From Bugula neritina (taxonomy: Eukaryota; Animalia; Bryozoa), in NCBI GenBank assembly GCA_964035545.1, contig OZ037771.1, positions 62,001-126,000 on the forward strand: DNA of 64,000 nt, read 5' to 3'. Shown piece by piece: positions 3,001 to 57,432 of the stretch. Position numbers and translations under genes: made by a program. The notes under the pieces are model-generated. The model did no database searches, had not been told where the DNA came from, and saw only the letters and a list, made by a program, of their open reading frames with translations. Positions within the stretch are counted from its first letter, which is position 1, and each line of letters starts with the position of its first letter.

Positions 3001-6000
3001 TCAGACTACACACTGTACACTCAGACTACACACTGTATACTCAGACTACACACTGTATACTCAGACTGCGCACTGTATACTCAGACTACGCACTGTATAC
3101 TCAGACTACACACTGTATACTCAGACTACACACTGTATACTCAGACTACATACTGTATACTCAGACTACACACTGTATACTCAGACTACACGCTGTATAC
3201 TCAGACTACACACTGTATACTCAGACTACATACTGTATACTCAGACTACAGACTGTATACTCAGACTACACACTGTATACTCAGACTACACTTACTCGGG
3301 ATGCTCACTAGCCAAGATATCTGCGTCAGTGAGGTTATCAAGACCCCCTGATGTTTCGTTGCTCTTGCTGAACTGAGGGGTAATGATGGGCAGTGAGCCC
3401 TTCATTGTACCAGAGGACTTCCTGTCAGGTTTCAGTCTGCGACAGCCGTAGACGGTGACCAGGACGACTGCCAGGACAAACACCACCGAGCCAACAATGA
3501 TGACCGCCCACATCCACGGCTTTATTGACTGCTTGGAGGTGTTTGTTCCCTCCATTTGGATACAAGCAGCTGCAATACAGTGCAATATAATGCAATATAA
3601 TACAATATAATACAATATAATATAATACAATATAATGCAATATAATACAATATAATACAATACAATATAATACAATACAATATAATATAATGCAATATAA
3701 TACAATACAATACAATATAATACAATATAATACAATATAATATAATACAATGCAATGCAATATAATACAATACAATACAATATAATATAATACAATGCAA
3801 TATAATACAATACAATATAATATAATACAATACAATATAATACAATACAATACAATATAATACAATGCAATATAATATAATACAATATAATACAATACAA
3901 TATAATACAATACAATGCAATATAATACAATGCAATATAATACAATATAATACAATGCAATATAATATAATACAATACAATATAATACAATACAATGCAA
4001 TATAATACAATGCAATATACTACAATATAATACAATACAATATAATACAATACAATATAATACAATACAATACAATACGATACAATACAGGAATTCTCCC
4101 ACAACATTGCAGTATCAACACATACTAGGAGATGAAACACTAATATGTTAGTTGATGTCATAACATACACTTACCGCTCACAGCATCGCAAGCCTTTCCT
4201 TGCCCACAAATATCAACAGTGAGTGGACATCCATCACATCCGGCCACAACCTGGTCAGCATTTGACACGGAAATAGCAAACTTATCTGTAACGGCAGCAG
4301 ACATTGGCAGCCGATCTCCATTGATTATCAGATCAGAGATACAACCTGAAGTAGAGACAGAGATATAACTTGAAGTAGAGACAGAGAGACAACTTGAAGT
4401 AGAGACAGAGATATAACTTGAAGTATAGACAGAGGTATAACTTGAAGTAGAGACAGAGATATAACTTGAAGTAGAGACAGAGATATAACTTGAAGTAGAG
4501 ACAGAGAGATAACTTGAAGTAGAGACAGAGATATAACTTGAAGTAGAGACAGAGATATAACTTGAAGTAGAGACAGAGATATAACTTGAAGTAGAGACAG
4601 AGATATAACTTGAAGTAGAGACAGAGATATAACCTGAAGTAGAGATAGAGATATAACTTGAAGTAGAGATAGAGATATAACTTGAAGTAGAGACAGAGAT
4701 ATAACTTGAAGTAGAGACAGAGAGACAACTTGAAGTAGAGACAGAGATATAACTTGAAGTATAGACAGAGGTATAACTTGAAGTAGAGACAGAGATATAA
4801 CTTGAAGTAGAGACAGAGATATAACTTGAAGTAGAGACAGAGATATAACTTGAAGTAGAGACAGAGATATAACCTGAAGTAGAGACAGAGATATAACTTG
4901 AAGTAGAGACAGAGATATAACTTGAAGTAGAGACAGAGATATAACTTGAAGTAGAGACAGAGAGACAACTTGAAGAAGAGACAGAGAGACAACTTGAAGT
5001 AGAGACAGAGATATAACTTGAAGTAGAGACAGAGAGATAACTTGAAGTAGAGACAGAGAGACAACTTGAAGTATAGACAGAGAGACAACTTGAAGTAGAG
5101 ACAGAGATATAACTTGAAGTAGAGACAGAGATCCAACTTGAAGTAGAGACAGAGAGACAACTTGAAGTAGAGACAGAGAGACAACATAAAGTAGAGACAG
5201 AAGGTGAATACGCGGCAGATAGTACTGAGAAGTCTGAGGTGGACAATGACCTCTCTACATACCTTGATACACGTCAGCAATGATAATCTGGGACACAGTG
5301 TAGAGATCAAGGAAGTCGTGAGGAGCAGAGGAGTTGTCTGCGGCCACTTTACCATCAACTGAGAGCAGAGTGGACGTGTCTGTCACAACCAAAGAGATGT
5401 CATGCCATTTACCATCTGTCACTGTCGTCTCTGCATTTGTCACACTTCCATACACGACTAATCCATCTTGCAACTTCAACTCTCTGTTGGCAGAGTACGG
5501 AATAGTTGACATGACTACCCCGTCCACTCCAGTTCTTACTCGCACACTCAGTCTACTACTATCAGCCGTAATTTGTCTCTTTATTCGTGATGAGGGCGTT
5601 TTCAGCAGTTGATCTCTGCGATAACTCTCCAGGTATTTGTATATGAAGGCAGATGACTGGCTGACGGAGACATCTGTGTCTATCAGAGCTGAAACATACA
5701 TACACTGTATAGATAACTAACGTACCTTCAGTACAAGAGAGCTGGTACTATGCAGAGAACTAACGTACCTTCAGTACAAGAGAGCTGGTACTATACAGAT
5801 AACTAACGTACCTTCAGTACAAGAGAGCTGGTACTATACAGATAACTAACGTACCTTCAGTACAAGAGAGCTGGTACTATACAGATAACTAACGTACCTT
5901 CAGTGCAAGAGAGCTGGGAGTAGAAATTAGGGCAGGCACAGAGAGTAGAGAACCAATCAGCTCGGCATTCATTCTCCTCTCCACACAAGGAGCTGCAGTG

Positions 6001-9000
6001 AGACGCTGGCTGAGGACAAGTGTTCCTTACATTGAAGGTGCTCTGTGAGTCCTCTATTGTGATTGGACGGCCATCTATTTGTAGGTCACCGATACAGCCA
6101 ATGAATGTTGCTGAGGATAACACAGATCTGAATTGAAGGACCGTGTCTATAGCGGCTGTACCTACAGAATAGAGTAAACAGGTATACTATAGAGTACACA
6201 GGTATACTATACTATACACAGGTATACTACAGAGTACACAGGTATACTATAGAGTACACAGGTATACTATAGAGTACACAGGTATACTATAGAGTACACA
6301 GGTATACTATAGAGTACACAGGTATACTATAGAGTACACAGGTATACTATAGAGTACACAGGTATACTATAGAGTACACAGGTATACTATAGAGTACACA
6401 GGTATACTATAGAGTACACAGGTATACTATAGAGTACACAGGTATACTATAGAGTACACGGGTATACTATAGAGTACACAGGTATACTACAGAGTACACA
6501 GGTATACTATACTATACACAGGTATACTATAGAGTACACAGGTATACTACAGAGTACACAGGTATACTATAGAGTACACAAGTATACTATAGAGTACACA
6601 GGTATACTATACTATACACAGGTATACTATAGAGTACACAGGTATACTATAGAGTACACAGGTATACTATAGAGTACACAGGTATACTATACTATACACA
6701 GGTATACTATAGAGTACACAGGTATACTATACTATACACAGGTATACTATAGAGTACACAGGTATACTATAGAGTACACAGGTATACTATAGAGTACACA
6801 GGTATACTATACCTGCAATGTAGAGAGGATGTGAGCTGGTCGTAAGATCTCCGAGCCCCTGGTTGAGTGAGACGCTACTGTAACAGTCCACCTGCTTATT
6901 ACAGGGTGTGGAGCATTCTGAGGCCGACTTGCAGAACACAACCTCTAGAGTAGCTTCAGTAGAGGTCCGTGTAGCGTGTATTCTATACCAGCTTCCGGAG
7001 GCCACAGTCTACAACACACACTGTCACATGACTTGCTAGTCTGAGTAGTTGGTAACCTAGCAACAGTCTACAACACACACTGTCACATGACTTGCTAGTC
7101 TGAGTAGTTGGTAACCTAGCAACAGTCTACAACACACACTGTCACATGACTTGCTAGTCTGAGTAGTTGGTAACCTAGCAACAGTCTACAACACACACTG
7201 TCACGTGACTTGCTAGTCTGAGTGGGTAGTAACCTAGCAACAGTTTACAACACACACTGTCACATGACTTGCCAGTCTGAGTAGTTGGTAACCTAGCAAC
7301 AGTCTACAACACACACTGTCACATGACTTGCTAATCTGAGTGGGTGGTAACCTAGCAACAGTCTACAACACACACTGTCACATGACTTGCCAGTCTGAGT
7401 AGTTGGTAACCTAGCAACAGTCTACAACACACACTGTCACATGACTTGCTAGTCTGAGTAGTTGGTAACCTAGCAACAGTCTACAACACACACTGTCACA
7501 TGACTTGCTAGTCTGAGTAGTTGGTAACCTAGCAACAGTCTACAACACACACTGTCACATGACTTGCTAGTCTGAATTGTGCTCTTCATACACTGGAGAT
7601 GGTTGACTCAATGGGTTTACCTTAGAAACTGTGACCCCGCTTTGACCTTGATCAGCCCTGAAGGTGAAGGTTACGCTGCCATCAGAGATCTGAAGAGCTA
7701 GGAACTGGGAGTCTACTCCTTGCTGGAACAGGAGTAAAGCGTTCATACTCTTAGTTGCCAAGGTCATCTTAATGTCATTCAAATCAAAGCTCTCAGATGG
7801 CAGCTGCATATACGAGCCATCTTGAAATCCGAAGCTGGACTCATTACAGAGCAGCCCGTAGTATCCATATGCACAGTTACACTGGTATCCTCCAGTGGGT
7901 AAATCTGTAACCAATTGGCAGTAATTATATAGTATAACATATATTACAGTATAGCATATATAGCACATAGTATGGGTGTAATATATATTACAGCATAGCA
8001 TATACAGCATATAGTATGAGTGTAATATATATTACAGTATAGCATATACAGCATATAGTATGGGTGTAATATATATTACAGCATAGAATATATAGCATAT
8101 AGTATAGGTGTAATATATATTACAGCATAGAATATATAGCATATAGTATGGGTACGACACACTCACCAACACACGTAGCTGTCTGATGACAAGGATTTCT
8201 GGTCTCACATCTGATTCTCTCCTCACACCTCACACCACGGTAATGCTCTGTACATGCACACTGGAAGGATCCCTCCACGTTGGTACAGCTGCCTCCATTT
8301 AGACATGTGTCCGGGTCCAGACATTCATCAACATCTTCCTCGCACTGAGCTCCCTGCCAGAACTCTGTGCAAACACACTGGAAGTCTGACTCCCCCACTG
8401 GAAGACATCGAGCGCCGTGCATGCAGGGTGAGCTGATGCAGGCTTTAGCCTCGTCACTGCAGCTCTCCCCGATGTACTGCGGCTCACAGACGCAGAGTGG
8501 CTGCAGAGAGGCGAGTTGGTAGGTGAGGGTAAGAGATGCGGTAGACGTGTAGTCTAGCTGGTCAAACACCACCACCTGTGAGCGACAGTCACCATTGCCG
8601 GAGCAGCTGGCCACTGTGCACACATTCCTGCGGGAGGTGGAGACGGTGACACCACTCTTCCTTGATATGGCTTCCTTGTTGGCAGAGAGGAGAGAGGCTA
8701 AGGAGGTGGATGGTGAGCCATCAGCAGCCTCCAGCACAAGGTAGAGGTCAATGTAATTCCCTGTGGATCTCATTGACAGTAATCTAACACTCTCACCGTT
8801 GAAAGTGAACTCTTCAACACTGGAGATGAACAACTCGGAGAGTTTAACAAACTCCTCGGCGCTAACATCAGATACTCGGGTCACAATAGCGGAGTCTAGA
8901 GTGCGATTAGTGTACGGTTTGACTTTGACATTCACAGTTGACTGCACAGTGTTATGAACACCGTCATGTCCATTAACGGTGAGAGACGTGTCTGATTTGA

Positions 9001-12000
9001 GATCTCTAGCTAGAAGTTGACAGCCAGCCCCTGGGTAAGTAAATGGACAATAGTGAGTACACAGTGAGTACACAGTGAGTGTATAGTGAGTGTATAATGA
9101 GTACACAGTGAGTATACAGTGAGTACACAGTGAGTATACAGTGAGTACACAGTGAGTACACAGTGAGTATACAGTGAGTACATAGTGAGTATACAGTGAG
9201 TATACAGTGAGTATACAGTGAGTATACAGTGAGTATATAGTGAGTACACAGTGAGTACACAGTGAGTACACAATGAGTACACAGTGAGTACACACGCACC
9301 AGGAAGAGAGAAGACAGGATGTGAGGAAATGCTACAAGAATAGTCGCCAACCACGTCAACGTCTAGAGGCTCTACGCTAGCCACAGCACCATCAACGTAG
9401 GGGCCATAACTCTGTATGACTACAGTCAGGTCCCTCGGCTCAGACGGCTCATCGTTCTCATCCTCTACGTTCACCTGAACACAAAGTACACGTCATCTAC
9501 CTTTCTGTCTTACAAACACGGCATCATTACCCTCATTCCACCTTCACAACAGTGTACAGAGGGCAGTACACATCACATGTTGGAGATAGACTCACCTTTG
9601 CTGTCAGCTGTGATGTGCGACCACCGCTGTCAGTTACGTCTACTGTAAGAGAGTAAGACTTGGTCACTTCATAGTCAAAGAGCAGGTTCTTAGTGAACAC
9701 TGTGCCTGAGTTCTGGTTGATGTAGAAGTGCGGTGAGTTGAGACTGTAGGTGTACGGCCCCTGTATGTCACATATATATTATCATAATATACTGTCATCT
9801 CATAACTCTGGTTTCATGTAATAAAGACCGAGCTGAATAAAAGTAAAGACCTGATTGGGAGGAATGTCATCATCATATGTCATGGAGCTGAGTCTAAGAA
9901 CTGGAGTGTCGGCCTCAGCTCCTTCGACAACTGAGCCCTCCGGTGTGGGGGGTAAGAAGTAGGGAGACTCATCATTCACATCAGTGACGTGTACATGAAC
10001 TATGGCTTGTCCGGTGAGAGGGGGACGACCCTGATCTATAGCCTGGGCTACCAACATGTACTCATTCTTTTCCTCTCTGTCCAATGAGCCTATATAAATC
10101 AGTTGATATACATCACATACAATACTATACTACATTATATTATACTATATTATATTATACTATATTATATTATATTATACTATGTTATATTATATCATAC
10201 TATACTATATTATATTATATTATATCATACTATAATATTATATTATTATCAGACTCACGAGTGGTGGAGATACGTCCATTGTCAGAGTCTATAGAGAACT
10301 GGCCAAAATCATCCTCCAGAGCATAGCTGAACTTCCTGTTATTAGCCTGCTGGTCAGAGTCAGTGGCAGAGACGGTCAATATATAAACTGCGGGCTGTTG
10401 ATTTTCCCCCACTGAGCCATTATAGGTCAGCTGGTTGAACCGGGGGCTATCATTAGCATCATCTAGATTTATCCATATCGTCGCCGTATCTGTATCATTC
10501 CCTGTCAGAACAGTTAGTAACAATATAATATGTTATACAATACAATATAATATAATATAATATACTACAATATAATATAATATAATATACTACAATATAA
10601 TATAATACATAATATAATATAATGCACTGATATTTATACATAGCCTACCTTTCACAGGTCCGGGATTTTTCACCAGAGCATGCAGTATTACGGTTGCCAC
10701 ACTTTCCCGATCTAATATTTCTGCCACTGTCAGTCTCCCGGTGGTTATGTCGAGAGAGAATCCCTTCTCGTTGCTCTCCCCAGTAAGTATGTACAGGAGC
10801 TGACCGTCTGCCCCTTCATCCTCGTCAGTCGCTGTCAGGTCTCCCAACACATGTCCAACTTGAGCTGATTCACTGACGTCAAATGTGTACGTCTTCTGCA
10901 GAACATATACAGAGCATATAGTAATATACAGAGCATATAGTAATATACAGAGCATATAGTAATATACAGAGCATATAGTAATATACAGAGCATATAGTAA
11001 TATACAGAGCATATAGTAATATACAGAGCATGTAGTAATATACAGAGCATATAGTAATATACAGAGCATATAGTAATATACAGAGCATATAGTAATATAC
11101 AGAGCATGTAGTAATATACAGAGCATATAGTAATATACAGAGCATATACATATAGTAATATACAGAGCATATACATATAGTAATATACAGAGCATATAGT
11201 AATATACAGAGCATATACTAGTACGTATAATACCATTATGTAACAGCTGATAAAACATACCTGTATGAATTTGGGTGAATATTCGTTGACTCCTCTCACA
11301 TAAACAGTAAGCAGAGCTGTACTAGTATATGCACTACTTTTAGGATTCACTGCTTTCACTGAGAGTCTGTATTCACTGCTCTCTTCATAGTCAAACACTG
11401 TTTTAGCAATGATCTCTCCGGACACACTGTCTATACTGAATAGTCTGTGGGACGAGCCATCCTCAATGATTGAGTATCTGAAAAAGTGACAGTAGTGCTA
11501 GTAGTAGTGACAGTAGTGCTAGTAGTAGTGCTAGTAGTAGTGACAGTAGTGCTAGTAGTAGTGACAGTAGTGCTAGTAGTAGTGACAGTAGTGCTAGTAG
11601 TAGTATATGCCTACCTTACAATGCCATTATCACCCTCGTCAGCGTCAACAGCGCTGACCTTGGTAACAAAGGAGTCAGGGTCAGAATTCTCAGAGAGGTA
11701 CGCAGTATAAGAGCTGGAGGTGAAGACTGGAGGATTGTCATCCGTGTCAAGGACATTGAGGGTTAGTACTGTGTATATCTTCTCAGGGTAGAACGCTTTG
11801 TCTTGTGCTCTCAGTGTAACCTGGTGCTGTGTTGATTTCTCGTAATCTATTAGTGAGGGATATATTACACAGACAGTGTATTCTCTCGTAATCTATTAGT
11901 GAAGGATATATTACACAGACAGTGTACTCTCTCGTAATCTATTAGTGAAGGATACATTACACAGACAGTGTACTTTCTCGTAATCTATTAGTGAGGGATA

Positions 12001-15000
12001 TATTACACAGACAGTATATTCTCTTGTAATCTATTAGTGAGGGATATATTACACAGACAGTGTACTCTCTCGTAATCTATTAGTGAGGGATATATTACAC
12101 AGACAGTGTACTCTCTCGTAATCTATTAGTGAGGGATATATTACACAGACAGTATATTCTCTCGTAATCTATTAGTGAGGGATATATTACACAGACAGTG
12201 TACTCTCTCGTAATCTATTAGTGAGGGATATATTACACAGACAGTATATTCTCTCGTAATCTATTAGTGAGGGATATATTACACAGACAGTGTACTCTCT
12301 CGTAATCTATTAGTGAGGGATATATTACACAGACATACCCAGAGCCTTAGAGAGGATGATTTGTCCAGTCTGAGGGTCAATACTCAACAAGTCAGCATCA
12401 TGGCTGCCAGAGACTATGGAGTAGATAATAGCAGAGTTGATGCCTTCATCCGAGTCCCCTGCTCTAACTACAGCTATCTCGTAGCCTGCTTCCTCACTCT
12501 CCGATACATCATATTCCAGGGGCGTTGGTGTCACCCACTATATATACAGTCAGTAGGACAGTATTCATACACTATATAACACCTACACTATACACACACC
12601 TATACATGTATGTATATCATGTAATATAAAGTATTTGAGTCTTACCCGAGGAGAGAACCTGTTCTCTGGAGTTATGAGTACAGTAACAGTCACATGACTC
12701 GACTGAACTGGCTGCCCGTGATCAGCTGCTTGTAGAGTCAGCGTGCGGTACTCGCCTGTTTTACCAACCACAGACTTGCTGACAGACACTTTCCCGGTGC
12801 TGCCTTCTACTTTAAACAGGGAGCTGCCATTCCCCCCGACTATAGAGTAGGAGACTAGGGCGTTGTCATGGTAGTCGACATTGTCAGCAGCGTTTACAGT
12901 CACCACCTCAGTATCCAGCGCAATGTCATCAGGAACAGCTGTCAAAATATAGCAGTGTGCTGTAGGTAGATACAGTGTGCTGTAGGTAGATACAGCGTAC
13001 TGTAGGTAGATACAGTGTGCTGTAGGTAGATACAGTGTGCTGTAGGTAGATACAGCGTACTGTAGGTAGATACAGTGTGCTGTAGGTAGATACAGTGTGC
13101 TGTAGGTAGATACAGTGTGCTGTAGGTAGATACAGTGTGCTGTAGGTAGATACGGTGTGCTGTAGGTAGATACAGTGTACTGTAGGTAGATACAGTGTGC
13201 TGTAGGTAGATACAGTGTACTGTATGTAGATACAGTGTGCTGCAGGTAGATACAGTGTGCTGTAGGTAGATACAGTGTGCTGCAGGTAGATACACTAAGC
13301 TAGGTGCTAGGTGGTAGGTGCTAGGTGGTAGGTGCTAGGTGGTAGGTGCTAGGTGGTAGGTGGTAGGTGCTAGGTGGTGGTACAGGGAAGAAATTAACAC
13401 TCACCAACAAAGTAACTGGTCTGTGAGAACTGCGGGGCGTGATCATTAGCATCCACTATAGAAATGTTTACTAGGGCTACGGCTGTGTGGCTGGGCACCC
13501 CGTGATCCCGTGCCTCAACATGGAGCATGTAAGAATTGTGGATCTCAGTGACATCAAACTCAAGGACATCCTTAGACTTAATTTCCCCCGTCATCGGGTC
13601 TATGAGAAAGAAGGAGCTGGGGCTAACGAGTTGATACTTTACCTGCAAGCAGTGTAACCATACAATACTATACTCATACAGTGTAACCATACAATACTAG
13701 ACTCATACAGTGTAACCATACAATACTAGACTCATACAGTGTAACCATACAATACTAGACTCATACAGTGTAACCATACAATACTATACTCATACAGTGT
13801 AACCATACAATACTAGACTCATACAGTGTAACCATACAATACTAGACTCATACAGTGTAACCATACAATACTATACTCATACAGTGTAACCATACAATAC
13901 TATACTCATACAGTGTAACCATACAATACTATACTCATAACGTAGTGTCAGACTAACCAGGGAGTTGGGTCCCTCCTCGTCCTCATCCTGTGTGTGGAGT
14001 TGTCCCACTACTGAGCCGACTGGCTGCTGCTCAGTGAAAGTAAAACTGTATGTTGGAGACGGGAGGAATTCTGGGGCATTATCGTTAACATCCGTCACCT
14101 GCAGTATATTGCTTTAATATAATACAATATAATACAGTATAACATAGTATAATACAATATAACATAATATAATATAACACAATATAACACAGTATAACAT
14201 AATATAACACAGTATAACACAATATAAAACAAGACAATAGACTACACAGCACCTGTATCTGTATGGTTGTAGAACCAGATATTCCATTCTCTCCTTGCAC
14301 ATTCTTAGCACTGACCACCACCTCATAGCTACTCACATTCTCTCTATCTAGTTTGGCTGTCAGAGTGACGTTACCGCTAGGAGTAATAGCGAAGTGGGAA
14401 CTTGGGCTATGCATTGAGTATAAAATCTCAGCATTTATTCCCACGTCTGCGTCTGTGGCGCTGACAGAGGAGATGATGCTGCCTACCAGCATATCCTCAG
14501 CAACACTCCATCTGTAGGCAGAGTCAAACCTGGGGAACATGTCGTTGATATCCTCCACGTTGACAATGACTATGGTGGTGGATGTGAGCCCTCCCCCGTC
14601 ACTAGCCTGTATAAGTAAGGAGTACCTGGCTATTCTCTCTCTGTCCAAGCTCTTAGTTCTCACCAGAGAGCCGTCTGGCTCCAGAATGAAAGGGTCGTCC
14701 ACGTTGCCAGACAGCAGGCTGTAGGTGACGGTGCCGTTCACACCAGAGTCCCTGTCTGTGGCTGTCACCTTGAGAAGGAGTCCTGCGTCAAACACATTCT
14801 CCTCCTCCACAACAGACACCACGTACAGAGCTTGCTCAAACTCCGGAGTGTGATTGTTCTCATCTGCTACCATGATTACCAGCTTCTCATACGACTTCGC
14901 CTCAGTGCTCACATCTCTCGCCTCTATCCAGAGGTCAAATGTCGGGGTGAGCGAGTAATCTAGAGGTCTAGTAAGAAGGAGTTGCCCGTCCACCCCTACC

Positions 15001-18000
15001 ATGAATGTATTGGCAGTGTTCCCACCAGCTATTGAGTAGAGTATAGTGTTGCCAGGGACAGAGGGAGTAGCAGTAACCCTCGACACTTGACTATTCACAG
15101 CTTTACCTTCTGACAGTCTAATATTAGATACCAAGTCTTGGAAGACAGGCTGTGCGGAAGTAGCGTAACGTCTGAAGGTTATGTTAACGCTGAGTTCAGA
15201 AGATTTACCACCTCCATCTGTGGCTCTGATGGTAAAGAAACTGGAAGAAGAGCTGGTAAGTCTCTGGGCTGACAGTACCACACCTGCAATACAACAGTAG
15301 AGTATTAGTAAAGTATCAGTAGAGTACTAGTAGAGTAAGAGTAGAGTATTAGTAGAGTATCAGTAGAGTATTAGTAGAGTAACAGTAGAGTATTAGTAGA
15401 GTAACAGTAGAGTATGAGTAGAGTATTAGTAGAGTAATAGTAGAGTAATAGTAGAGTATCAGTAGAGTATTAGTAGAGTAATAGTAGAGTAATAGTAGAG
15501 TAATATTAGAGTAATAGTAGAGTATCAGTAGAGTATTAGTAGAGTAATAGTAGAGTAATAGTAGAGTATCAGTAGAGTATTAGTAGAGTAATAGCAGAGT
15601 ATTAGTAGAGTATCAGTAGAGTATCAGTAGAGGAATAGTAGAGTATATAGTAGAGTATCAGTAGAGTAATAGCAGAGTAATAGTAGAGTATTAGTAGAGT
15701 AAGAGTACGGACCTGTGGAAGTATCGAGATTAAACAGGCCATCGCTGACTCCATGTAGAGAATAAATTATGCTGCCGTTAGCACCAAAATCATAATCCAC
15801 AGCTGTGCTGCCCACCACAAACTGGCCAGCCTCAGTTGGGTCTTGCAGCTCCACGCTCAACTGCTCTTGTGTGAAAGAGGGAGCATTGTCATTTATGTCC
15901 CTCAGAATAACCTGTATGATTGTATCATGATACATACACTTCTCGTTACAATAAATCAATGCAAACACTCACTCAGTATATAGTTACACAGTTACACTCA
16001 CTTAGTATATAGTTACACAGTTACACTCACTCAGTATATAGTTACACAGTTACACTCACTCAGTATATAGTTACACAGTTACACTCACTCAGTATATAGT
16101 TACACAGTTACACTCACTCAGTATAATGTTACACAGTTACACTCACTCAGTATATAGTTACACAGTTACACTCACTCAGTATATAGTTACACAGTTACAC
16201 TCACTCAGTATATAGTTACACAGTCACACTCACTCACTCTGTCAAACCTTATATCAATGACTTGTAACATCAGTACTTGCCAAATCTAAATAATAATCTA
16301 AGAAATACCTTGACATTAGCCATTGAGCTTTGGGATACATCACCGAGATCATGGGCTATGACAGTCAGTTCGTAAGTTTCATTAACTTCACGATCGAGAG
16401 TCTGCACATTGGTAATCCAGCCTACAGATATCATATAGTAGTGTAGATATCATATAGTAGTGTAGATATCATATAGTAGTGTAGATATCATATAGTAGTG
16501 TAGATATCATATAGTAGTGTAGATATCATATAGTAGTGTAGATATCATATAGTAGTGTAGATATCGTATAGTAGTGTAGATATCGTATAGTAGTGTAGAT
16601 ATCATATAGTACTGTAGATATCATATAGTAGTGTAGATATCATATAGTACTGTAGATATCATATAGTAGTGTAGATATCATATAGTAGTGTAGATATTGT
16701 ATAGTAGTGTAGATATCATATAGTAGTGTAGATATCATGTAGTAGTGTAGATATCATATAGTAGTGTAGATATCATATAGTAGTGTAGATATCATACAGT
16801 AGTGTAGATATCATATAGTAGTGTAGATATCATGTAGTAGTGTAGATATCATACAGTAGTGTAGATATCATATAGTAGTGTAGATATCATATAGTAGTGT
16901 ACACATCGCCATCTAACCTGTGACGTAGTCGATAGTGAAGTATTCTGCTGCAGAGTCATTGTAGAGGGCGTAGCGCACTTCCCCGTTACTTCCAAGGTCA
17001 AGGTCACTGGCTGTAACTTGTATTATTTCTCTGTGTAGCTGAGGCCCCTCGACTATTTTAGTCGAGTAAATTGGAAGGTCAAAGATAGGGGGGTGATCGT
17101 TGATGTCCCGCACTGTAACCTCCACAATGGCTTCTCCACTCAGCTCTGAAGAACCTAATGCAAAATTACTCACCAAGTCAGTCTATATGATACTGAATGT
17201 ATGTAGGATAATGACTTGCATAATATGATAACGTACTATACTATACTCATACAGGATGCAACTTGGTAATAATACAATACAGTAAAATACAGGTTTATGA
17301 TGAGATTCATTCTGCTAGTTTTACCGGCTACAATATTTCGGGCTACGACTTTCAGAGTGAACTTGGAAGTCTTTTCTCTGTTAACCGGTTTACTGGCAAA
17401 AATGACTCCAGTGGTTGAGTTAATAGAGAAGATACTGCGACTTAGTTGAGAGTCATCGTCCAATCCAAACACTAGTTCGTAGTATGACTCATTGTAAGGG
17501 GCGGAGTCTGGGTCGTATACTTCTACCTGTGATATCGTACATATGATATATTATATATAATAGTTACTATACATATGATATATTATATAATAGTTACTAT
17601 ACACATGATATACTGTATAATAGATACTATACACATGATATACTATATAATAGTTATTATACATATAATATATTATATATAATAGATACTATACATGTGA
17701 TATACTATATAATGGATAATATACATATAATATATTATATAACAAACTTAGTAGGAATTGTCTCACCTTAGTAAGTTGTACTGGTGAGTGACGAGATTCT
17801 TCTTGCAGATACACATTATAAGGGGAATGTAGAAACACAGGAGGGGAGTCATTCCAGTCTAAAACACGGACATCTACGTCTATTGTAGAGGACTGGGAGC
17901 TGACACCTAGGTCTTCAGCCTGAATGAAATATGGAGTATATAGGTCACACTTACTTGTATGGTTAGAATATATAGGTCACACTTACTTATATGATTAGAG

Positions 18001-27000: not shown

Positions 27001-30000
27001 CTGTATACTATACTATATACTATACTGTATACAATACTATACTACATATACACTATACTATATACTATACTGTATACTATACTATACTACATATACACTA
27101 TACTATATACTATACTATATACTGTGCTGTATACTATACTATGCTATATTCTACTATAATATACTATAACATAATATCTGGTATCTACTGTTCGTCTTAC
27201 TGTATATCTCTCAGTGACTTCATCCGTATCAGAACTCTCTCTGTCAACAGAGGAACTGGCAAATATCACTCCATTGTTATTTATACTAAACTTGGCTGGC
27301 TGAGGCTGGCTTGTTATCGAGTATAAAACTTTACCATTTACTCCGCTGTCACTGTCATTAGCTGACACAGTTACCACCTGAAGTGTACAGTGACGTATAG
27401 AGAGTGTAATATAGAGAGTGTAATATAGAGAGTGTAATATAGAGAGTGTAATATAGAGAGTGTAGTATAGAGAGTGTAGTATAGAGAGTGTAATATAGAG
27501 AGTGTAGTATAGAGAGTGTAGTATAGAGAGTGTAATATAGAGAGTGTAATATAGAGAGTGTAATATAGAGAGTGTAATATAGAGAGTGTAGTATAGAGAG
27601 TGTAATATAGAGAGTGTAGTATAGAGAGTGTAGTATAGAGAGTGTAATATAGAGAGTGTAATATAGAGAGTGTAATATAGAGAGTGTAATATAGAGAGTG
27701 TAATATAGAGAGTGTAATATAGAGAGTGTAATATAGAGAGTGTAGTATAGAGAGTGTAATATAGAGAGTGTAATATAGAGAGTGTAATATAGAGAGTGTA
27801 ATATAGAGAGTGTAATATAGAGAGTGTAATATAGAGAGTGTAATATAGAGAGTGTAGTATAGAGAGTGTAATATAGAGAGTGTAATATAGAGAGTGTAGT
27901 ATAGAGAGTGTAGTATAGAGAGTGTAGTATAGAGAGTGTAGTATAGAGAGTGTAATATAGAGAGTGTAATATAGAGAGTGTAATATAGAGAGTGTAATAT
28001 AGAGAGTGTAATATAGAGAGTGTAATATAGAGAGTGTAATATAGAGAGTGTAATATAGAGAGTGTAATATAGAGAGTGTAGTATAGAGAGTGTAGTATAG
28101 AGAGTGTAGTATAGAGAGTGTAGTATAGAGAGTGTAATATAGAGAGTGTAATATAGAGAGTGTAATATAGAGAGTGTAATATAGAGAGTGTAATATAGAG
28201 AGTGTAATATAGAGAGTGTAATATAGAGAGTGTAATATAGAGAGTGTAGTATAGAGAGTGTAGTATAGAGAGTGTAATATAGAGAGTGTAATATAGAGAG
28301 TGTAGTATAGAGAGTGTAGTATAGAGAGTGTAGTATAGAGAGTGTAATATAGAGAGTGTAATATAGAGAGTGTAATATAGAGAGTGTAATATAGAGAGTG
28401 TAATATAGAGAGTGTAATATAGAGAGTGTAATATAGAGAGTGTAATATAGAGAGTGTAATATAGAGAGTGTAGTATAGAGAGTGTAGTATAGAGAGTGTA
28501 GTATAGAGAGTGTAGTATAGAGAGTGTAATATAGAGAGTGTAATATAGAGAGTGTAATATAGAGAGTGTAATATAGAGAGTGTAATATAGAGAGTGTAGT
28601 ATAGAGAGTGTAGTATAGAGAGTGTAATATAGAGAGTGTAATATAGAGAGTGTAATATAGAGAGTGTAATATAGAGAGTGTAATATAGAGAGTGTAATAT
28701 AGAGAGTGTAATATAGAGAGTGTAATATAGAGAGTGTAATATAGAGAGTGTAATATAGAGAGTGTAATATAGAGAGTGTAATATAGAGAGTGTAATATAG
28801 AGAGTGTAATATAGAGAGTGTAATATAGAGAGTGTAATATAGAGAGTGTAATATAGAGAGTGTAATATAGAGAGTGTAATATAGAGAGTGTAATATAGAG
28901 AGTGTAATATAGAGAGTGTAATATAGAGAGTGTAATATAGAGAGTGTAATATAGAGAGTGTAATATAGAGAGTGTAATATAGAGAGTGTAATATAGAGAG
29001 TGTAATATAGAGAGTGTAATATAGAGAGTGTAGTATAGAGAGTGTAATATAGAGAGTGTAATATAGAGAGTGTAATATAGAGAGTGTAATATAGAGAGTG
29101 TAATATAGAGAGTGTAGTATAGAGAGTGTAGTATAGAGAGTGTAATATAGAGAGTGTAATATAGAGAGTGTAATATAGAGAGTGTAATATAGAGAGTGTA
29201 ATATAGAGAGTGTAATATAGAAAGTGTAATATAGAGAGTGTAGTATAGAGAGTGTAATATAGAGAGTGTAATATAGAGAGTGTAATATAGAGAGTGTAAT
29301 ATAGAGAGTGTAGTATAGAGAGTGTAATATACAGGGCGCTATGCAAGGTGCTTCCAGTGTCAGTAGGTGTTTTAATGCAGATTACACTAATGCAATTTGA
29401 GTTTTTTGTCAGGTGTGGGGAGTGTTTATGTTTGGTTGGTAGACTAACAAACTGAGTCTGTATTGACAGGCATTGTCTAAATAAACGTATTGCTAGTTGA
29501 AACAGTGCCAATGGAAGAGGATGTCCAAACACACAGACAGAGAGACAGAGAGACAGAGAGACAGAGAGACAGAGAGAAAAAGAGACAGAGAGACAAGCCA
29601 ACTCACAGGTGTAGAAGTATTGGTGTTTTCAGGTATAGACACTGAGACTATGTCGTTAGTAAATCTCGGACTATTGTCATTGACATCTAGGACATTGATA
29701 CTGAGTCTAGTCTGTGCGGTGAGAGACTCTGGGGATCTGTTAGCTGCCACTATGCTCAGTATATACAGCTGCTTATTCTCATAGTCCAGCTTCCTTGCCA
29801 ACTTCACTTCTCCTGTTCCCTCCACAATCTCAAACACCTCTTCAGCATTACCTAGAGATAGATTATAATATCTAGTCTACTCTATCAACATAAACCACAT
29901 TGTGTATACAATATAACTGCATGCAATGTAATACTGAAGAGTTGAGATGGTATTAGCTAATCCAGCAGTGGGCGTAGACAGGGTAAGCTATTAATCATCA

Positions 30001-33000
30001 TTATCATTCAGCTTCAGTATAATATATTCTCTCTAGTTATATCATAAGTATATATTCTCTCTAGTTATATCATAAGTATATATTCTCTCTAGTTATATCA
30101 TAAGTATATATTCTCCCTCTAGTTATATCATACGTATATATTCTCTCTAGTTATATCATAAGTATATATTCTCTCTAGTTATATCATATGTATATATTCT
30201 CTCTCTAGTTATATCATATGTATATATTCTCTCTCTAGTTATATCATATGTATATTCTCTCTCTAGTTATATCATAAGTATATATTCTCTCTCTAGCTAT
30301 ATCATATGTATATATTCTCTCTCTAGTTATATCATATGTATATATTCTCTCTCTAGTTATATCATATGTATATTCTCTCTCTAGTTATATCATAAGTATA
30401 TATTCTCTCTAGTTATATCATACGTATATATTCTCTCTCTAGTTATATCATATGTATATTCTCTCTCTAGTTATATCATAAGTATATATTCTCTCTAGTT
30501 ATATCATAAGTATATATTCTCCCTCTAGTTATATCATATGTATATATTCTCTCTCTAGTTATATCATATGTATATATTCTCTCTCTAGTTATATCATAAG
30601 TGTATATTCTACCTTGGGTTATGGAGTAGTGAATGATAGCATTGACTCCTAAGTCACCATCAGTAGCTGTTATAGTGGCGACCACCGCCCCCACCTCGGC
30701 ATCCTCATTCACATTGACTGAGTAACTGGGTCTATCAAATTCAGGGCTCTGGTTGTTAGCATCAAGGAGTGTGATGTGCACAGTGGTGACAGAGGAGAGG
30801 GGGGGTTGGCCACCGTCCCTAGCCTCTACCATCAACTTGTAGTCACTCTGTCTCTCTCTGTCCAACACTCCCTCCACTGACAGAGAGCCGGTATCTTCGT
30901 CTATCCTGAAGTGACCTTTCTCATTACCACCAATAATATAGTATTCCACAGCACCATTGAGCTCTAAGTCCTCATCCTCAGCACTCACAGGGTTAATCTA
31001 CAGTAGAGATCAAGCATCAGTTTACTTGCATATCACAACGCAATGTAGAATACACTGTACAACACAATGTAGAATACACTGTATAACACAATGTAGAATA
31101 CACTGTATAACACAATGTAGAGTACACTGTATAACACAATGTAGAGTACACTGTATAACACAATGTAGAGTATACTGTACAACACAATGTAGAGTATACT
31201 GTATAACACAATGTAGAATACACTGTATAACACAATGTAGAATATACTGTATAACACAATGTAGAATACACTGTATAACACAATGTAGAGTATACTGTAC
31301 AACACAATGTAGAATACACTGCATAACACAATGTAGAGTACACTGTACAACACAATGTAGAGTACACTGTATAACACAATGTAGAATACACTGTATAACA
31401 CAATGTAGAGTGGCTCTCCTTACCATCTGCCCTGGATAAGCAGCCTCTGATATCTGTATGTCATAATCTGTTTTTGTAAACTTCGGTTTGTTATCATTTA
31501 CATCTTCAACAATGACAGACACCTTGGCTTGTGTGGATCGCTTGGTTATACCATTGTCAACTGCCTATAAACATATAAGCATTGTCAACTGCCTATAAAC
31601 ATATAAGCATTGTCAACTGCCTATAAACATATAAGCATTGTCAACTGCCTATAAACATATAAGCATTGTCAACTGCCTATAAACATATAAGCATTGTCAA
31701 CTGCCTATAAACATATAAGCATTGAACTCGACGGGCAATAAGCTACTATAGCTAAGGTCAGTTCACGCTGTAGCTGTCCCAAGTGCTACTAACCAAGACA
31801 TTGAAAATATATTAATCCCAAAGCTTGATCACTTAGAAAAAGGATATGAAGTTTGACTTTAAGCTGTGGTGTGAATGGTGCATTGTGTAGAAGAATAGTA
31901 ACTAATAATACCACAATAATATAATTACATTATATAACATATAATAACATAATATAATATAATAATATAATATAATCAAGCAGCTACATACCCGAACTGT
32001 GAGGTCATACTTAGAGACTGCTTCTCTATCAAACTCTTTCTTTGACCTAATTTCTCCAGTAAATGGGTCAAGGTCAAAGCTATGCTGATTAGTTGTAAAA
32101 AAGTACATGAGATCAGAATTTCTACCAACATCATCATCACGGGCACTGACAGACCCTACAAACAATCAAAAGAACTGTCCACACTAACACTCCTTATTTC
32201 ACACACTGTATACACCACTGTCCACACTAACACCCCTTAGTTCACACACTGTATACACCACTGTCCACACTAACACCCCTTAGTTCACACACTGTATACA
32301 CTACTATCCACACTAACACCCCTTAGTTCACACACTGTATACACTACTGTCCACACTAACATCCCTTAGTTCACACACTGTATACACTACTATCCACACT
32401 AACACCCCTTAGTTCACACACTGTATACACTACTGTCCACACTAACATCCCTTAGTTCACACACTGTATACACTACTGTCCACACTAACACCCCTTAGTT
32501 CACACACTGTATACACCACTGCTGACAATACTCACCAATGTAGACACCAGCCGCACGACCTTCCAACACTCTGAACTCGTAAGAGGCGGAGCTAAACTCT
32601 GGGTAGTTGTCATTGTTGTCGAGTATCTTCACATGAACCAGGGCAATGTCGGTACGGGGTGTGGGTCGCCCCCCATCTGTAGCTTGCACTAGCAGCCGGT
32701 ACCGCCCTTTAGATTCCCGGTCAAGTTTTTGAGCTACATAGAGAGAGCCGTCAGGGAACACTCCAAACTCCGGTCTACTTGAACTAACCCCACTTATGAG
32801 AGAGTAAGTGACGTGTGCATTCTCCCCTACAACATATACACCCCCTTTATATCACACACTGTACTCTCTCTATACCACACACTGTACCCCCTCTATACTA
32901 TACACCCTCTCTAAATCATACACCCTCTCTATACCATACACCCCCTCTATACTATACCCCCTCTATATCATACACCTCTCTATACCATACACCCTCTATA

Positions 33001-36000
33001 CCATACATCCCCTCTATACTATACCCCCTCTATATCATACACCCCCTCTATACTACACACCCCCTCTATACTATACACCCCCTCTATATCATACACCTCT
33101 CTATACCATACACCCTCTCTATACCATACACCACCTCTATACCATACACCCCCTCTATACCATACACCCCCTCTATACTATACACCCCCTCTATACCATA
33201 CACCCCCTCTATTTCATACACCAGGAGCGTAAGTACTACCTTCATCGTCATCCGTAGCAGTAAGCCGAAGGAACTGGTGGTTAATAAGAGAGCTCTCATT
33301 CACTGCTACGCTATATTCTCTGTGTTCAAATACTGGAGAATGATCATTGACATCTTCGGCTATTAGCACTACTTCAGCAGAGTTGAATCTATCAAAGAGA
33401 TCAACGTGAATACTGTAATATATAAATATATAAAGTATTTATACACATACTATACAATATATACACATACTATACAATATATACACATACTATACAATAT
33501 ATACACATACTATACAATATATACACATACTATACAATATATACACATACTATACAATATATACACATACTATACAATATATACACATACTATACAATAT
33601 ATACACATACTATACAATATATACACATACTATACAATATATACACATACTATACAATATATACACATACTATACAATATATACACATACTATACAATCA
33701 ACTACTATATCATTACATAAAACCCTCACCTAGGAACAGCTCCCCTGTCTGTAGCAGTCACCGTAAACTTCACGGTATTTCCAACCTGCAGCTTATCTCT
33801 CAGACTTACAGCCCCATTTACTTGGTCTATAACCAGGCTGTCCACAGCATTAGCAGATATACTGTAGGTTACTTTGGCATTTTTACCTGCATCTCTGTCT
33901 TTAGCCTGTTGAGATACAAACCAACTTTATGTAGATATTACTAAAGTGTAGATATTACTCAAGTGTAGATATTACTAATATATATATAAATATGCACAAC
34001 AGGTAGTCAACAAACCTGAGCAACAAACACAACGCTGTGAGGTGGGGTGTCTTCAGGAACCCGTATTGTGTATTTTGATTGAGTGAATTCTGGGCTATTG
34101 TCATTCTCATCTTCTATGATGATGTTGACAGAAGCAAAGGCTAGTTTGCTAATTCCTCGGGCTACAACAGTAAGGCGGTACGCTGCTACGTCATCTCTAT
34201 CCAGACTTTTTGTGGTGGTTATCTCTCCCGACCTCGTACCAATGGTAAATACACCATCTGGATCTCCATCAAGTATGGCATAAGTGATGACTGTTTCAGC
34301 CCTAGCTGATATCTACAGTGTACATACAGTATAGTAAGTATAGTATAGTAAGTACAATATATAGTAAGTACAGCAGAGCTAGTATAGTATAGTAAGTGCA
34401 GTATAGTAAGTAGAGTATAGTAAGTACAGTACAGTAAGTACAGTAGAGCTAGTATAGTATAGTAAGTACAGTATATAGTAAGTACAGTAGAGCTAGTATA
34501 GTACAGTAAGTACAATATATAGTAAGTACAGCAGAGCTAGTATAGTATAGTAAGTACAGTATATAGTAAGTACAACAGAGCTAGTATAGTATAGTAAGTA
34601 CAGTATATAGTAAGTACAACAGAGCTAGTATAGTATAGTAAGTACAGTATATAGTAAGTACAACAGAGCTAGTATAGTATAGTAAGTACAATATATAGTA
34701 AGTACAGTAAAGCTAGTATAGTACAGTAAGTACAGTATATAGTAAGTACAGTATACAGTAAGTACAACAGAGATGTGAGACAGCCCAGACAGAGGAAGGA
34801 CTCTGAAGGAAACTGTGGTTGAAGGACCTGGAAATGATAACAGAGTAGACACTTTCCCAGTTATCACTCTGAGGTCAGATATATTTATACTTTGTGGCAT
34901 TTCATCTATTTTAGACCTGCAGTCCGAAAAGTTATAGCCAGTGATTCAAACAAACCGTTTGCAGCGAACCAGTGGGGCCTATACCCCATACCCCAGTGTC
35001 TAGCAGGGAAAATAGCAGGGAGAACTGAGACTAATACTGAGGGAGTACAAAGTTTACAAGCCAAGAAACCAAAATATAAACTCGCTCTCCCTGGCATACG
35101 CAGGAATGGGGGAAAGGCAAGTTGGAAACTTCTAGTCTGAACCAGAGCTATTTCTATCAATATTTGAGATTTTCTAGTATTTGATTATAAGAAGAATAAT
35201 GCAGACATACAGAGTTAGATTTGGGAGTAATAAATATTGAACAACATAGGGGAGGAGGGTAGAGGGCAGTATAGCTAGTATATAATTATATGAACAACAT
35301 AGGGGAGGAGAGTAGAGGGCAGTATAGCTAGTATATAATTATATGAACAACATAGGGGAGGAGAGTAGAGGGCAGTATATCTAGTATATAATTATATGAA
35401 CAACATAGGGGAGGAAAGTAGAGGGCAGTATAGCTAGTATATAATTATATGAACAGTAGAAAAGCATTCTATACCCTGCACTGCAGAGTAGAGTGTGTTT
35501 TTCACCCCCAGGCATCTCATTTTGAAAAAATTAATTCCAATTTCATGGTTGGACAGTGGCATACATAGAGAGTGACTTGAATAAACACACATATTCATTG
35601 TATGAAGATTGTGAGAAGATTGTACACACACAGGTGTATAACATAATGCTGACTCAAGTAACAATCTAAACAATCACCTGTGTTGGCTTCAAGTGGGGTA
35701 ACTTAGATATTTAATGAAATGAAAATATACATTATAAAACTATTCAATAGAGGTTAGCAAGTGAGATCCTGGGGTAAAGTGTACAGTATAGTGTAATATA
35801 AAGGTACAGTAGTATAGTGTAATATAAAGGTATAGTAGTATAGTGTAATATAAAGGTACAGTAGTATAGTGTAATATAAAGGTATAGTATAGTGTAATAT
35901 AAAGGTACAGTAGTATAGTGTAATATAAAAGTATAGTATAGTGTAATATAAAGGTATAGTAGTATAGTGTAATATAAAGGTACAGTAGTATAGTGTAATA

Positions 36001-39000
36001 TAAAGGTATAGTAGTATAGTGTAATATAAAGGTATAGTAGTATAGTGTAATATAAAGGTATAGTAGTATAGTGTAATATAAAGGTATAGTAGTATAGTGT
36101 AATATAAAGGTATAGTAGTATAGTGTAATATAAAGGTATAGTATAGTGTAATATAAAGGTACAGTAGTATAGTGTAATATAAAGGTATAGTATAGTGTAA
36201 TATAAAGGTATAGTAGTATAGTGTAATATAAAGGTACAGTAGTATAGTGTAGTATAAAGGTATAGTAGTATAGTGTAATATAAAGGTACAGTAGTATAGT
36301 GTAATATAAAGGTACAGTAGTATAGTGTAAGATAAAGGTATAGTAGTATAGTGTAATATAAAGGTATAGTAGTATAGTGTAATATAAAGGTATAGTAGTA
36401 TAGTGTAATATAAAGGTACAGTAGTATAGTGTAATATAAAGGTACAGTAGTATAGTGTAATATAAAGGTATAGTATAGTGTAATATAAAGGTATAGTAGT
36501 ATAGTGTAATATAAAGGTACAGTAGTATAGTGTAGTATAAAGGTATAGTAGTATAGTGTAATATAAAGGTACAGTAGTATAGTGTAATATAAAGGTATAG
36601 TAGTATAGTGTAGTATAAAGGTACAGTAGTATAGTGTAATATAAAGGTATAGTAGTATAGTGTAATATAAAGGTACAGTAGTATAGTGTAATATAAAGGT
36701 ATAGTAGTATAGTGTAGTATAAAGGTACAGTAGTATAGTGTAATATAAAGGTACAGTAGTATAGTGTAATATAAAGGTATAGTAGTATAGTGTAGTATAA
36801 AGGTACAGTAGTATAGTGTAATATAAAGGTACAGTAGTATAGTGTAATATAAAGGTATAGTATAGTGTAATATAAAGGTATAGTATAGTGTAATATAAAG
36901 GTATAGTAGTATAGTGTAATATAAAGGTACAGTAGTATAGTGTAATATAAAGGTATAGTAGTATAGTGTAGTATAAAGGTATAGTAGTATAGTGTAATAT
37001 AAAGGTATAGTAGTATAGTGTAGTATAAAGGTACAGTAGTATAGTGTAATATAAAGGTATAGTAGTATAGTGTAATATAAAGGTACAGTAGTATAGTGTA
37101 ATATAAAGGTACAGTAGTATAGTGTAGTATAAAGGTACAGTAGTATAGTGTAATATAAAGGTACAGTAGTATAGTGTAATATAAAGGTACAGTAGTATAG
37201 TGTAATATAAAGGTACAGTAGTATAGAGTAATATAAAGGTACAGTAGTATAGTGTAATATAAAGGTACAGTAGTATAGTGTAATATAAAGGTATAGTAGT
37301 ATAGTGTAGTATAAAGGTACAGTAGTATAGAGTAATATAAAGGTACAGTAGTATAGTGTAATATAAAGGTATAGTAGTATAGTGTAATATAAAGGTATAG
37401 TAGTATAGTGTAATATAAAGGTACAGTAGTATAGAGTGACGTATAGTAGTATAGAGTGACGTATAGTAGTATAGAGTGACGTACAGTGCCCACGAGTTGA
37501 CCAATATTAGGGGTGGTGCCACTAGCGTCCTCTAACACAGAGTATGCATAAGTTGAGTTGGTGAACACTGGGTCTCTCTCTTCAGGGTCACCAATCTTCA
37601 CTTCTACTGTGCAAGTGGCCTTGTTAGTAGTTCCAGGGGTGTCTGCCGCATTAATCTACACAGAGGTATATACCAATTACCTCTAGCACATAAGAACTTG
37701 GTGATATTACCTCTAGCACATAAGAGCTCAGTAATATTACCTCTATAACATAAGAACTTGGTGATATTACCTCTAGGACATGAGAGCTTGGTAATATTAC
37801 CTCTAGCACATAAGAACTCGGTGATATTACCTCTAGCACATAAGAACTCGGTGATATTACCTCTAGCACATAAGAACTCGGTGATATTACCTCTAGCACA
37901 TAAGAACTCGGTGAAGCAGGTAGAGTAGCGAGGAGTGAAAGCTCGCCAGTTGCAGCATCAACAGAGAAGAGGTGATTGACCTGGCTGTGTGAAGCTAAGC
38001 TGTAGATTACTCTGCCATTGTCACCAACATCATTGTCATGTGCTGACACAAACAGAACAGAGTGCCCAACACTCGCTGACTTAGGTACGACAGCGTAGTA
38101 ACGAGAGGGGTAGAATATGGGTCTGTTGTCATTCTCATCGGTCACATTGATATATAGGGTGGCCTGCAACAACACTAGTGTGTGTATATATATATAATAT
38201 ATGAGAGTAGTTAGTTATATAATATATGAGAGTAGTTAGTTATATAATATATGAGAGTAGTTAGTTATATAATATATGAGAGTAGTTAGTTATATAATAT
38301 ATGAGAGTAGTTAGTTATATAATATATGAGAGTAGTTAGTTATATAATATATGAGAGTAGTTAGTTATATAATATATGAGAGTAGTTAGTTATGTAATAT
38401 ATGAGAGTAGTTAGTTATGTAATATATGAGAGTAGTTAGTTATATAATATATGAGAGTAGTTAGTTATATAATATATGAGAGTAGTTAGTTATATAATAT
38501 ATGAGAGTAGTTAGTTATATAATATATGAGAGTAGTTAGTTATATAATATATGAGAGTAGTTAGTTATATAATATATGAGAGTAGTTAGTTATATAATAT
38601 ATGAGAGTAGTTAGTTATGTAATATATGAGAGTAGTTAGTTATATAATATATGAGAGTAGTTAGTTATATAATATATGAGAGTAGTTAGTTATATAATAT
38701 ATGAGAGTAGTTAGTTATATAATATATGAGAGTAGTTAGTTATGTAATATATGAGAGTAGTTAGTTATGTAATATATGAGAGTAGTTAGTTATATAATAT
38801 ATGAGAGTAGTTAGTTATATAATATATGAGAGTAGTTAGTTATATAATATATGAGAGTAGTTAGTTATATAATATATGAGAGTAGTTAGTTATATAATAT
38901 ATGAGAGTAGTTAGTTATATAATATATGAGAGTAGTTAGTTATATAATATATGAGAGTAGTTAGTTATATAATATATGAGAGTAGTTAGTTATATAATAT

Positions 39001-48100: not shown

Positions 48101-48723
48101 ATTGTAATATTTGATATAAATATAATATATCATTCATATGAATGAAAGCTATAAGTCAAAAACTTAGATTAAATTTAAATAGTTGGGATTATACCTTATG
48201 CTAATGTGCTTGCAATATCCATACTGATTATTTTACAGTCAATAATTGGTATAAAATTTAAATATATTGATTTGAATATTTAATATAATTCATGCTGTGA
48301 ACATCAGTGGCTTCAATATTTTAATACTAATTGGCAGCAGTATTATTTGTGGTTAAAAATATCTTGAGCTGAATTTTATAAGTTTATGCTGATGTTTGTT
48401 GTTCACTATAAGTTATTTGATTTATTGACCAAGTCTAATAGCAGGACGTGTTAGCATGTTGTTCATAAGTAGCAACTAAAATATCACTTCACAAAAAGTT
48501 TTATAAAACAATGTATTGATATTAAATTAGTCACTTGGTCATCACATTGATTTGCAAGTTACCTAATAGACAAGAGTTAACAGGTCATACAAATGTCAGT
48601 GGATGAAATTTCTATTTCATTGCTGATAATAAATTTAAACAGGCAGTTATTGTTTGATACAGGGCAAAATTTTCTTTATGCAAGCCAAGTCATTTTTGCT
48701 CTAATTTATGTAGATTTTGGAAA

Positions 48724-57167: not shown

Positions 57168-57432
57168 GTTCAGTAGTAGTACATTAGGAGTTAACCAACC
57201 AACTGCTAAATAATTATTACAATGCTACTTTCCCTTTAACATGTATAATAAATGCCAATGCTTCTCTAACGTGATTTATTCTAGTAGCAAGGCGCTGTTG
57301 TTCAAATAAATCAGTGTTAGTTTTTTGTCCAATTTAATTGTAACAAATAAATTTAAATAGTTCAATGAAATGTCTAAACAATATACCTATTTATTGCAGT
57401 ATTTATAAAATTTATTTTTTGATACTCTTTTG

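Follow-up and report, generated by a model that had tools for sequence, protein, structure and literature searches.

What becomes of an intron when a tandem array takes over one of its splice sites? The question is raised by a 64,000-nt stretch of the genome of the bryozoan Bugula neritina (contig OZ037771.1, positions 62,001 to 126,000; hereafter the window), which carries a giant Fat4-like cadherin gene on its minus strand. In four introns of this gene (5, 25, 35 and 46), the repeat unit of an array spans the exon-intron boundary and the donor or acceptor recurs from copy to copy. When each array is collapsed to its innermost copy, only 25-37 nt of intron are left. The original prediction held that such arrays had not simply been added to normal introns, and offered three options: the arrays overwrote the intron interior, the ancestral introns were ultra-short, or the introns arose by tandem duplication. 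Its general claim is supported by three kinds of evidence, namely, segments of repeat units that have no source in either flank (orphan segments), a difference between two paralogous introns that lies flush with an array, and replacement of flank by array in one sequence from a sibling lineage. The same evidence (orphans in the units of introns 44 and 35, the paralogues, and the flank in the sibling-lineage sequence P0309) makes overwriting the best fit of the three. From these sequence comparisons we favour, with some but not strong confidence, the view that the introns are old, that an array arose beside one splice site, and that the unique interior was then lost stepwise, the 25-37 nt being likely remnants.

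Array load and collapsed lengths

The model of the cadherin gene was curated by hand, because the automatic model had put spurious exons into long introns. The reading frame is open, with no stop, across all 51 junctions, and the last exon is truncated by the start of the window. The product has cadherin, EGF and laminin G domains (Pfam), and the best named matches are Fat4 and cadherin-related tumor suppressor. Support from outside the window is confined to introns 4, 5 and 24 (acceptor only) to 35, and the acceptor of intron 8 has a second in-frame option 24 nt off. A protein end at 2530 was considered and dropped, since a donor at 2537 and two further exons keep the frame open.

Tandem arrays (score of at least 50 in Tandem Repeats Finder, TRF) are present in 48 of the 51 introns, and arrays make up 46% of the window. 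Their units are private: among 42 arrays, a 16-mer is common to just 4 of 861 pairs. A common transposon source was rejected on this count, all four pairs being AT-rich simple units. Compound arrays, in which the unit type grades from 23 to 18 nt (32840-33222), from 26 to 20 nt (37421-37487) or from 20 to 7 nt (12953-13376), are a possible sign that one array may have succeeded another. The median intron of the gene is 397 nt long and none of the 51 is below 90 nt. The array-free introns in the window measure 90, 97, 121 and 170 nt, none being shorter than 90. The lengths of 90, 97, 108 and 121 nt originally given for the shortest real introns were confirmed, but an intron of 110 nt (33906-34015) had been missed.

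Collapsed length is taken here as the distance from the innermost splice-site copy to the opposite splice site, and a junction array as one that crosses a splice site by at least 5 nt; eight arrays of the cadherin gene qualify. Automatic collapse by whole units gave values that were too long for introns 35 and 44 (78 and 140 nt), and the innermost-site values were used instead. The four distances on which the prediction rested are correct (37656-37680, 25 nt; 12307-12338, 32 nt; 17920-17954, 35 nt; 5689-5725, 37 nt; all GT..AG on the minus strand). Among the nine arrays that span a splice site, however, these four have the shortest collapsed lengths, and the others give 68-287 nt. The eight in the cadherin gene give 25, 32, 35, 37, 73, 77, 81 and 251 nt, the last becoming 287 nt if collapse is limited to the junction array.

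That short collapse is a peculiarity of junction arrays, as the original prediction implied, was not borne out: seven of the 40 internal arrays reach 31, 35, 38, 40, 44, 48 and 49 nt. Collapse to 40 nt or less is found in 4/8 junction versus 4/40 internal arrays (Fisher p = 0.018, with a cut-off chosen post hoc), and the enrichment is weaker at 50 nt or less (p = 0.068). The excess is gone when non-array DNA plus one unit is counted (3/8 versus 9/40 at 50 nt, p = 0.39), a comparison that is needed because the exonic part of a junction unit otherwise drops from the count. In all, 26 of the 48 array introns collapse below 90 nt and 11 to 50 nt or less. Since no real intron is shorter than 90 nt, the puzzle is real, yet it is gene-wide.

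Evidence for a probable loss of intron interiors

Judging from the repeat units, collapsing an array does not always recover the ancestral intron. The 59-nt unit of intron 44 can be divided into 5 exonic nt, 36 nt that recur at the innermost end of the intron, and an 18-nt orphan that neither flank, on either strand, matches better than it matches shuffled sequence; the orphan is absent from the exon and from the collapsed intron. Similarly, 8 nt of the 46-nt unit of intron 35 are found in neither flank. Neither segment could come, through one duplication event, from the flanks as they now stand. The units of introns 5, 25, 46, 20, 11 and 47 have no orphan segment.

A second case is provided by two fucosyltransferase paralogues that are 95% alike and whose corresponding introns have the donor end, the array and the acceptor end in common (Table 1). 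In the longer intron a 284-nt unique block begins directly at the edge of the array and stops about 19 nt short of the AG; in the shorter one the block is absent and the array abuts the last ~19 nt. The block contains an AG/GT-bounded, 30-nt, in-frame candidate exon (55812-55841), and for this reason loss is favoured over insertion.

The third case comes from public sequencing runs, which carry a lineage with about 15% of sampled words in common with exon 1. In two read-through translations from this sibling lineage, P0136 and P0309, the 11-nt array of intron 42 fills the intron from donor to acceptor; the lengths they imply are 253 and 256 nt, versus 269 nt in the window. Ahead of the acceptor, two flank codons are common to the window and P0136; P0309 has array residues instead. 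Over 37490-38175, most public runs with the cadherin gene, including runs under the same organism label, are about 8% off the window in exons, which suggests cryptic sibling lineages.

The age of the array in intron 5 is also informative. This intron was compared with four of 22 runs, one of which, X8, was taken as RNA by guess. An X8 contig (16,553 nt) omits exactly 37656-37890 and continues into exon 4, the outermost donor being the one joined; it is a single assembled contig, and contigs drop rare splice forms. It differs from the window exons at 34 of 442 nt (~8%). The DNA runs X3 and X5 contain 31-59-nt contigs of the intron-5 unit at several times the exon depth of X5 (21.6), those from X3 lacking exon cover and being no proof alone. 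Such depth fits a tandem loop, and the array is therefore older than the split at ~8% exon divergence, an age that leaves time for erosion; the array of intron 42, present in the sibling lineage too, gives the same indication. From X8 for intron 5, and from the reading frame for the others, the outermost copy of the splice site, which restores the frame, appears to be the one used.

The positions of some of the introns are old as well. A metagenome contig (L001), one of 90 candidate stretches, contains an ortholog of exons 25-36 with ~57% amino-acid identity and identity at 96 of 283 four-fold sites. All 11 introns from 25 to 35 are at the identical alignment column, codon and phase. In L001 they are 191-292 nt long (median 246) and TRF finds no array in them; in the window the same introns hold a median of 25 nt of non-array DNA. 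In this alignment of orthologous introns, of the kind that the prediction had proposed, introns 25 and 35 are present at the same position, array-free, with lengths of 243 and 246 nt. Because codon and phase are the same, by this comparison these two introns are not new. L001 is distant, and so it shows the age of the intron position, not the ancestral length. Introns 5 and 46 lie outside L001; a search of genome contigs for an ortholog across them found none, and a search with the laminin G exon gave no homolog.

Intron 11 looks like a starting state for the process, because the copies of its array are identical, a 5-nt microhomology is present between exon and intron, and its 287-nt interior is intact. 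In other introns, too, arrays lie at the edges. The position of arrays in the introns of the cadherin gene (58-43583) was tested in the 13 introns with at least 120 nt of non-array DNA, where 16 of 20 arrays are within 45 nt of a splice site versus 6.3 expected at random (0 of 100000 simulations as extreme). A threshold-free test gives a mean relative distance of 0.13 versus 0.25 (P = 8e-5), and five of the 13 introns (4, 6, 11, 14 and 16) have an array at both ends. Over all 48 array introns, arrays stop a median of 14 nt from the donor and 20 nt from the acceptor. The bias points to a mutational process at exon-intron boundaries; our guess is that replication or repair synthesis stalls at the transition between conserved exon and divergent intron.

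Table 1. Location and structure of the cadherin gene, a selection of its array-bearing introns, and related introns elsewhere in the window.
Feature	Position	Strand	Length (nt)	Structure	Collapsed length (nt)
Fat4-like giant cadherin gene	1..45156	-		52 exons, 51 introns, 4702 open codons	
Intron 5	37656..37890	-	235	30-nt unit (24 exon + 6 intron), 8 donors	25
Intron 25	17920..18082	-	163	32-nt unit; donor in 5 copies, GT missing from one; 14 nt unique	35
Intron 35	11847..12338	-	492	46-nt unit, 11 acceptor copies, 3 nt unique	32
Intron 46	5689..5897	-	209	43-nt unit, 5 donors, 15 nt unique	37
Intron 44	7009..7620	-	612	59-nt acceptor array, 10 positions	81
Intron 20	21839..22252	-	414	31-nt donor array, 12 positions, 4 inner without GT	73
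Intron 11	31565..31991	-	427	28-nt acceptor array, copies 100% identical; interior intact (287 nt)	
Intron 47	4346..5262	-	917	24-nt acceptor array	77
Intron 45	6162..6812	-	651	20-nt array, wholly internal, beginning at +2 and stopping 7 nt short of the end	31
Intron 9	32827..33221	-	395	internal array, 13 nt unique	35
Intron 42	9031..9299	-	269	internal 11-nt array	38
Intron of neighbouring plus-strand gene	49246..50401	+	1156	32-nt donor array, 35 donor copies	68
Fucosyltransferase paralogue 1	55340..56089	+	750 (donor to acceptor)	28-nt array, then 284 nt unique (55788-56072)	
Fucosyltransferase paralogue 2	62017..62185	+	169	same donor and acceptor ends; array abuts last ~19 nt; 284-nt block absent	

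The junction arrays differ in how well the inner splice signals have been kept. GT or AG is present at every copy in introns 5, 46, 35 and 11, and inner dinucleotides are lost at 1/4 positions in intron 25, 4/11 in intron 20, 1/9 in intron 44 and 33/35 in intron 47. In intron 47 the AG is kept at the outer acceptor, as if decoy acceptors had been purged or a silent variant had spread. All four inner copies of intron 46 carry one common substitution. The units of introns 5, 20 and 46 contain AG/GT, whose inner copies would be candidate intermediates of recursive splicing. In introns 46, 25 and 35, whose units are not multiples of three, splicing at an inner site would put the message out of frame; in intron 5 it would add ten residues per copy. 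The unit of intron 5 is in frame and stop-free; its inner donors, if used, would give 1-7 extra ten-residue repeats within a cadherin domain.

The neighbouring plus-strand gene (about 48720-51230) is small and multi-exon and lies head to head with the cadherin gene, ~3.5 kb apart; by eye, its N-terminus resembles a mitochondrial presequence. The fucosyltransferases are a GT11 tandem pair (54718-57260 and 60319-63363) with an upstream 20-nt array of 23 versus 77 copies. A dispersed 131-nt duplicate, 95% alike (52180-52310 and 58545-58675), probably belongs to the duplication behind the pair. Among named sequences, the one closest to the fucosyltransferase comes from Bugula neritina (44% identity, versus 32-34% for a bivalve), a match that by itself points only weakly to a bryozoan; the ESM atlas returned generic GT11 clusters only.

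A proposed route from boundary duplication to array-filled intron

The evidence can be accommodated in four steps. Initially, a 10-60-nt stretch at or across the exon edge would be duplicated; the position at the edge is observed, and the cause is likely to be slippage between short microhomologies, as in intron 11. A duplicated stretch that crosses the edge would carry the splice site along. The array would then grow and shrink while its copies are homogenised, as is seen between paralogues and between lineages. In the third step, to which the three cases above lend support, the array would supply length and deletions from array to flank would become tolerated, the edge of the array advancing until it abuts the donor hexamer and the terminal 7-30 nt that precede the AG. 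Finally, in at least 11 of the 48 introns the array is predicted to supply the length without which the intron would now be too short to splice. That arrays are now needed for spliceable length is thus a plausible prediction of the scheme. Judging by established splicing models, use of the outermost site among up to 11 near-identical acceptors would need sites to be defined from the exon side.

Several observations weigh against this scheme. No array-free close relative was seen for any of introns 5, 25, 35 and 46, and the long introns of L001, a distant sequence, need not be ancestral. The units of introns 5, 25 and 46 are explained by their flanks, with 1, -2 and 3 nt unexplained, and a 7-nt microhomology between exon and intron in intron 25 is what plain duplication would leave if the intron had started at 35 nt. 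In intron 35, drift in a copy of the exon could account for the 8-nt orphan. The paralogue difference lacks an outgroup, and P0309, a translated short-read contig across an array, may be mis-assembled. In the 40 introns with a single array, array size and leftover unique DNA are uncorrelated (Spearman 0.04, p = 0.82). The minimum intron length of the species rests on about 55 introns.

Replacement could also have occurred in one step: a single template switch would have copied an exon end or start over the interior, keeping the length at 55-80 nt, with expansion later. It calls for a single event instead of a series, and the orphan segments could be templated inserts. The two-copy lengths of the four introns (55, 67, 78 and 80 nt) come near the 50-90 nt typical of the shortest animal introns (PMC13644364), but they are still under the 90-nt minimum of this gene. 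Moreover, intron 11, whose identical copies make it probably the youngest, keeps its interior, and in the paralogue and P0309 cases flank was lost after the array was already present. We therefore regard one-step replacement as unlikely.

Less likely still is that the ancestral introns were truly 25-37 nt long and were lengthened by plain tandem expansion. The option retains some plausibility for introns 5, 25 and 46, whose units require no lost sequence, and some animals have a median intron length of only 22-27 nt (PMC13644364); a sponge gene is reported to have 47-nt introns (PMC3078890). However, among 51 genomes introns of the former kind are confined to parasitic myxobolids and a dicyemid (PMC13644364), no intron of the cadherin gene and no array-free intron in the window is below 90 nt, the orthologous introns have 191-292 nt, and the orphans make collapse an invalid reconstruction in two of the eight junction arrays.

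The third option, that new introns arose by tandem duplication of an exonic AG/GT, one copy becoming the donor and another the acceptor (the Rogers model), we consider very improbable. Such a gain has been proposed for comparable arrays in lancelets (PMC3087553); AG/GT is present within the units of introns 5 and 46, and copied exon makes up as much as ~71% of the length of intron 5. The codon and phase shared with L001 rule it out for introns 25 and 35. In none of the four introns does the unit include the opposite splice site, which lies within 3-20 nt of non-array DNA (20 nt of unique sequence ahead of the acceptor in intron 5), and the following exon does not carry the unit on. For this reason gain by duplication is unlikely for introns 5 and 46 as well, although they fall beyond the reach of L001.

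Finally, removal of unique sequence by assembly error is scarcely credible: arrays are hard to assemble and the whole intron-5 stretch is in no single contig, but a contig from X1 (which may be the assembly's own sample) runs through exon 6 and the acceptor of intron 5, across the 25 nt and into the innermost donor (37490-37695) with zero differences, so the extreme collapse of this intron is not a mis-assembly. In addition, intron 42 of the sibling lineage is filled wall to wall by the array seen in the window, and the frame is open over 51 junctions.

Wider reading and comparison with known systems

Stepwise replacement of interiors, if true, means that the sequence of an intron can turn over fully with its position kept, a neutral ratchet making an unstable repeat necessary. 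It would be a warning that array collapse does not reconstruct the ancestral intron. Copy-number floors among alleles would test the lower size limit of animal introns, and the arrays would test how one among many identical splice sites gets chosen. A broader reading, which we hold tentatively and with more doubt than belief, is that a genome-wide process seeds private minisatellites at exon edges that replace the intron interiors; a large proportion of introns would then have load-bearing arrays, selection would hold copy number above what the shortest spliceable intron requires, and as many as 35 identical decoy sites would be ignored by strict exon-side definition. Were this so, the animal would offer thousands of natural, highly mutable length series for the study of minimum intron size and splice-site choice. 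A search of literature listings, mostly open-access, gave no published account of introns almost all filled with arrays, of a bias of arrays to exon edges or of replaced interiors, and only the lancelet work discussed below was relevant.

Ultra-short introns of 22-30 nt, as genome-wide medians, are known from myxobolid myxozoans and Dicyema japonicum, which are reduced parasites (PMC13644364). They demonstrate that lengths such as those left by collapse are spliceable in some animals. Unlike those genomes, the cadherin gene has a median intron of 397 nt with 0/51 under 90 nt.

The closest parallel is with the "mirage" minisatellites of lancelets, described in Adh3, the globins BflGb6 and BflGb9, troponin C and PGBD5 (PMC3087553, PMC3902484). 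Mirages have units of 10-160 bp over an exon-intron boundary, most copies have splice signals, and splicing is undisturbed; length instability and concerted evolution are reported, and a route to intron gain is proposed (PMC3087553, PMC3902484). To that extent the two systems share several features. The unit spans the 5' or the 3' boundary (24-59 nt here), and GT or AG persists in many of the copies though not in every one. The outer site may likewise be the one spliced, to judge from one X8 contig for intron 5 and from the reading frame elsewhere. Copy-number variation and homogenisation may also be common to both, the former being seen here in internal arrays (23 versus 77 copies; 253, 256 and 269 nt in intron 42) and the latter suggested by the common substitution of intron 46. 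As in the Rogers model of gain cited in PMC3087553, copied exon makes up much of the intron; unlike in that model, the unit does not include the opposite splice site, and a distant ortholog has two of the four introns. The present case differs from the mirages, as far as the available text of those accounts goes, in coming from a bryozoan, in concentrating eight junction arrays, and arrays in 48 introns, within a single gene, and in the edge bias of arrays that often fill the intron end to end. Those portions of the lancelet accounts propose gain of introns and describe no loss of the interior, whereas at the bryozoan locus old introns have probably lost their interiors to the arrays beside them.

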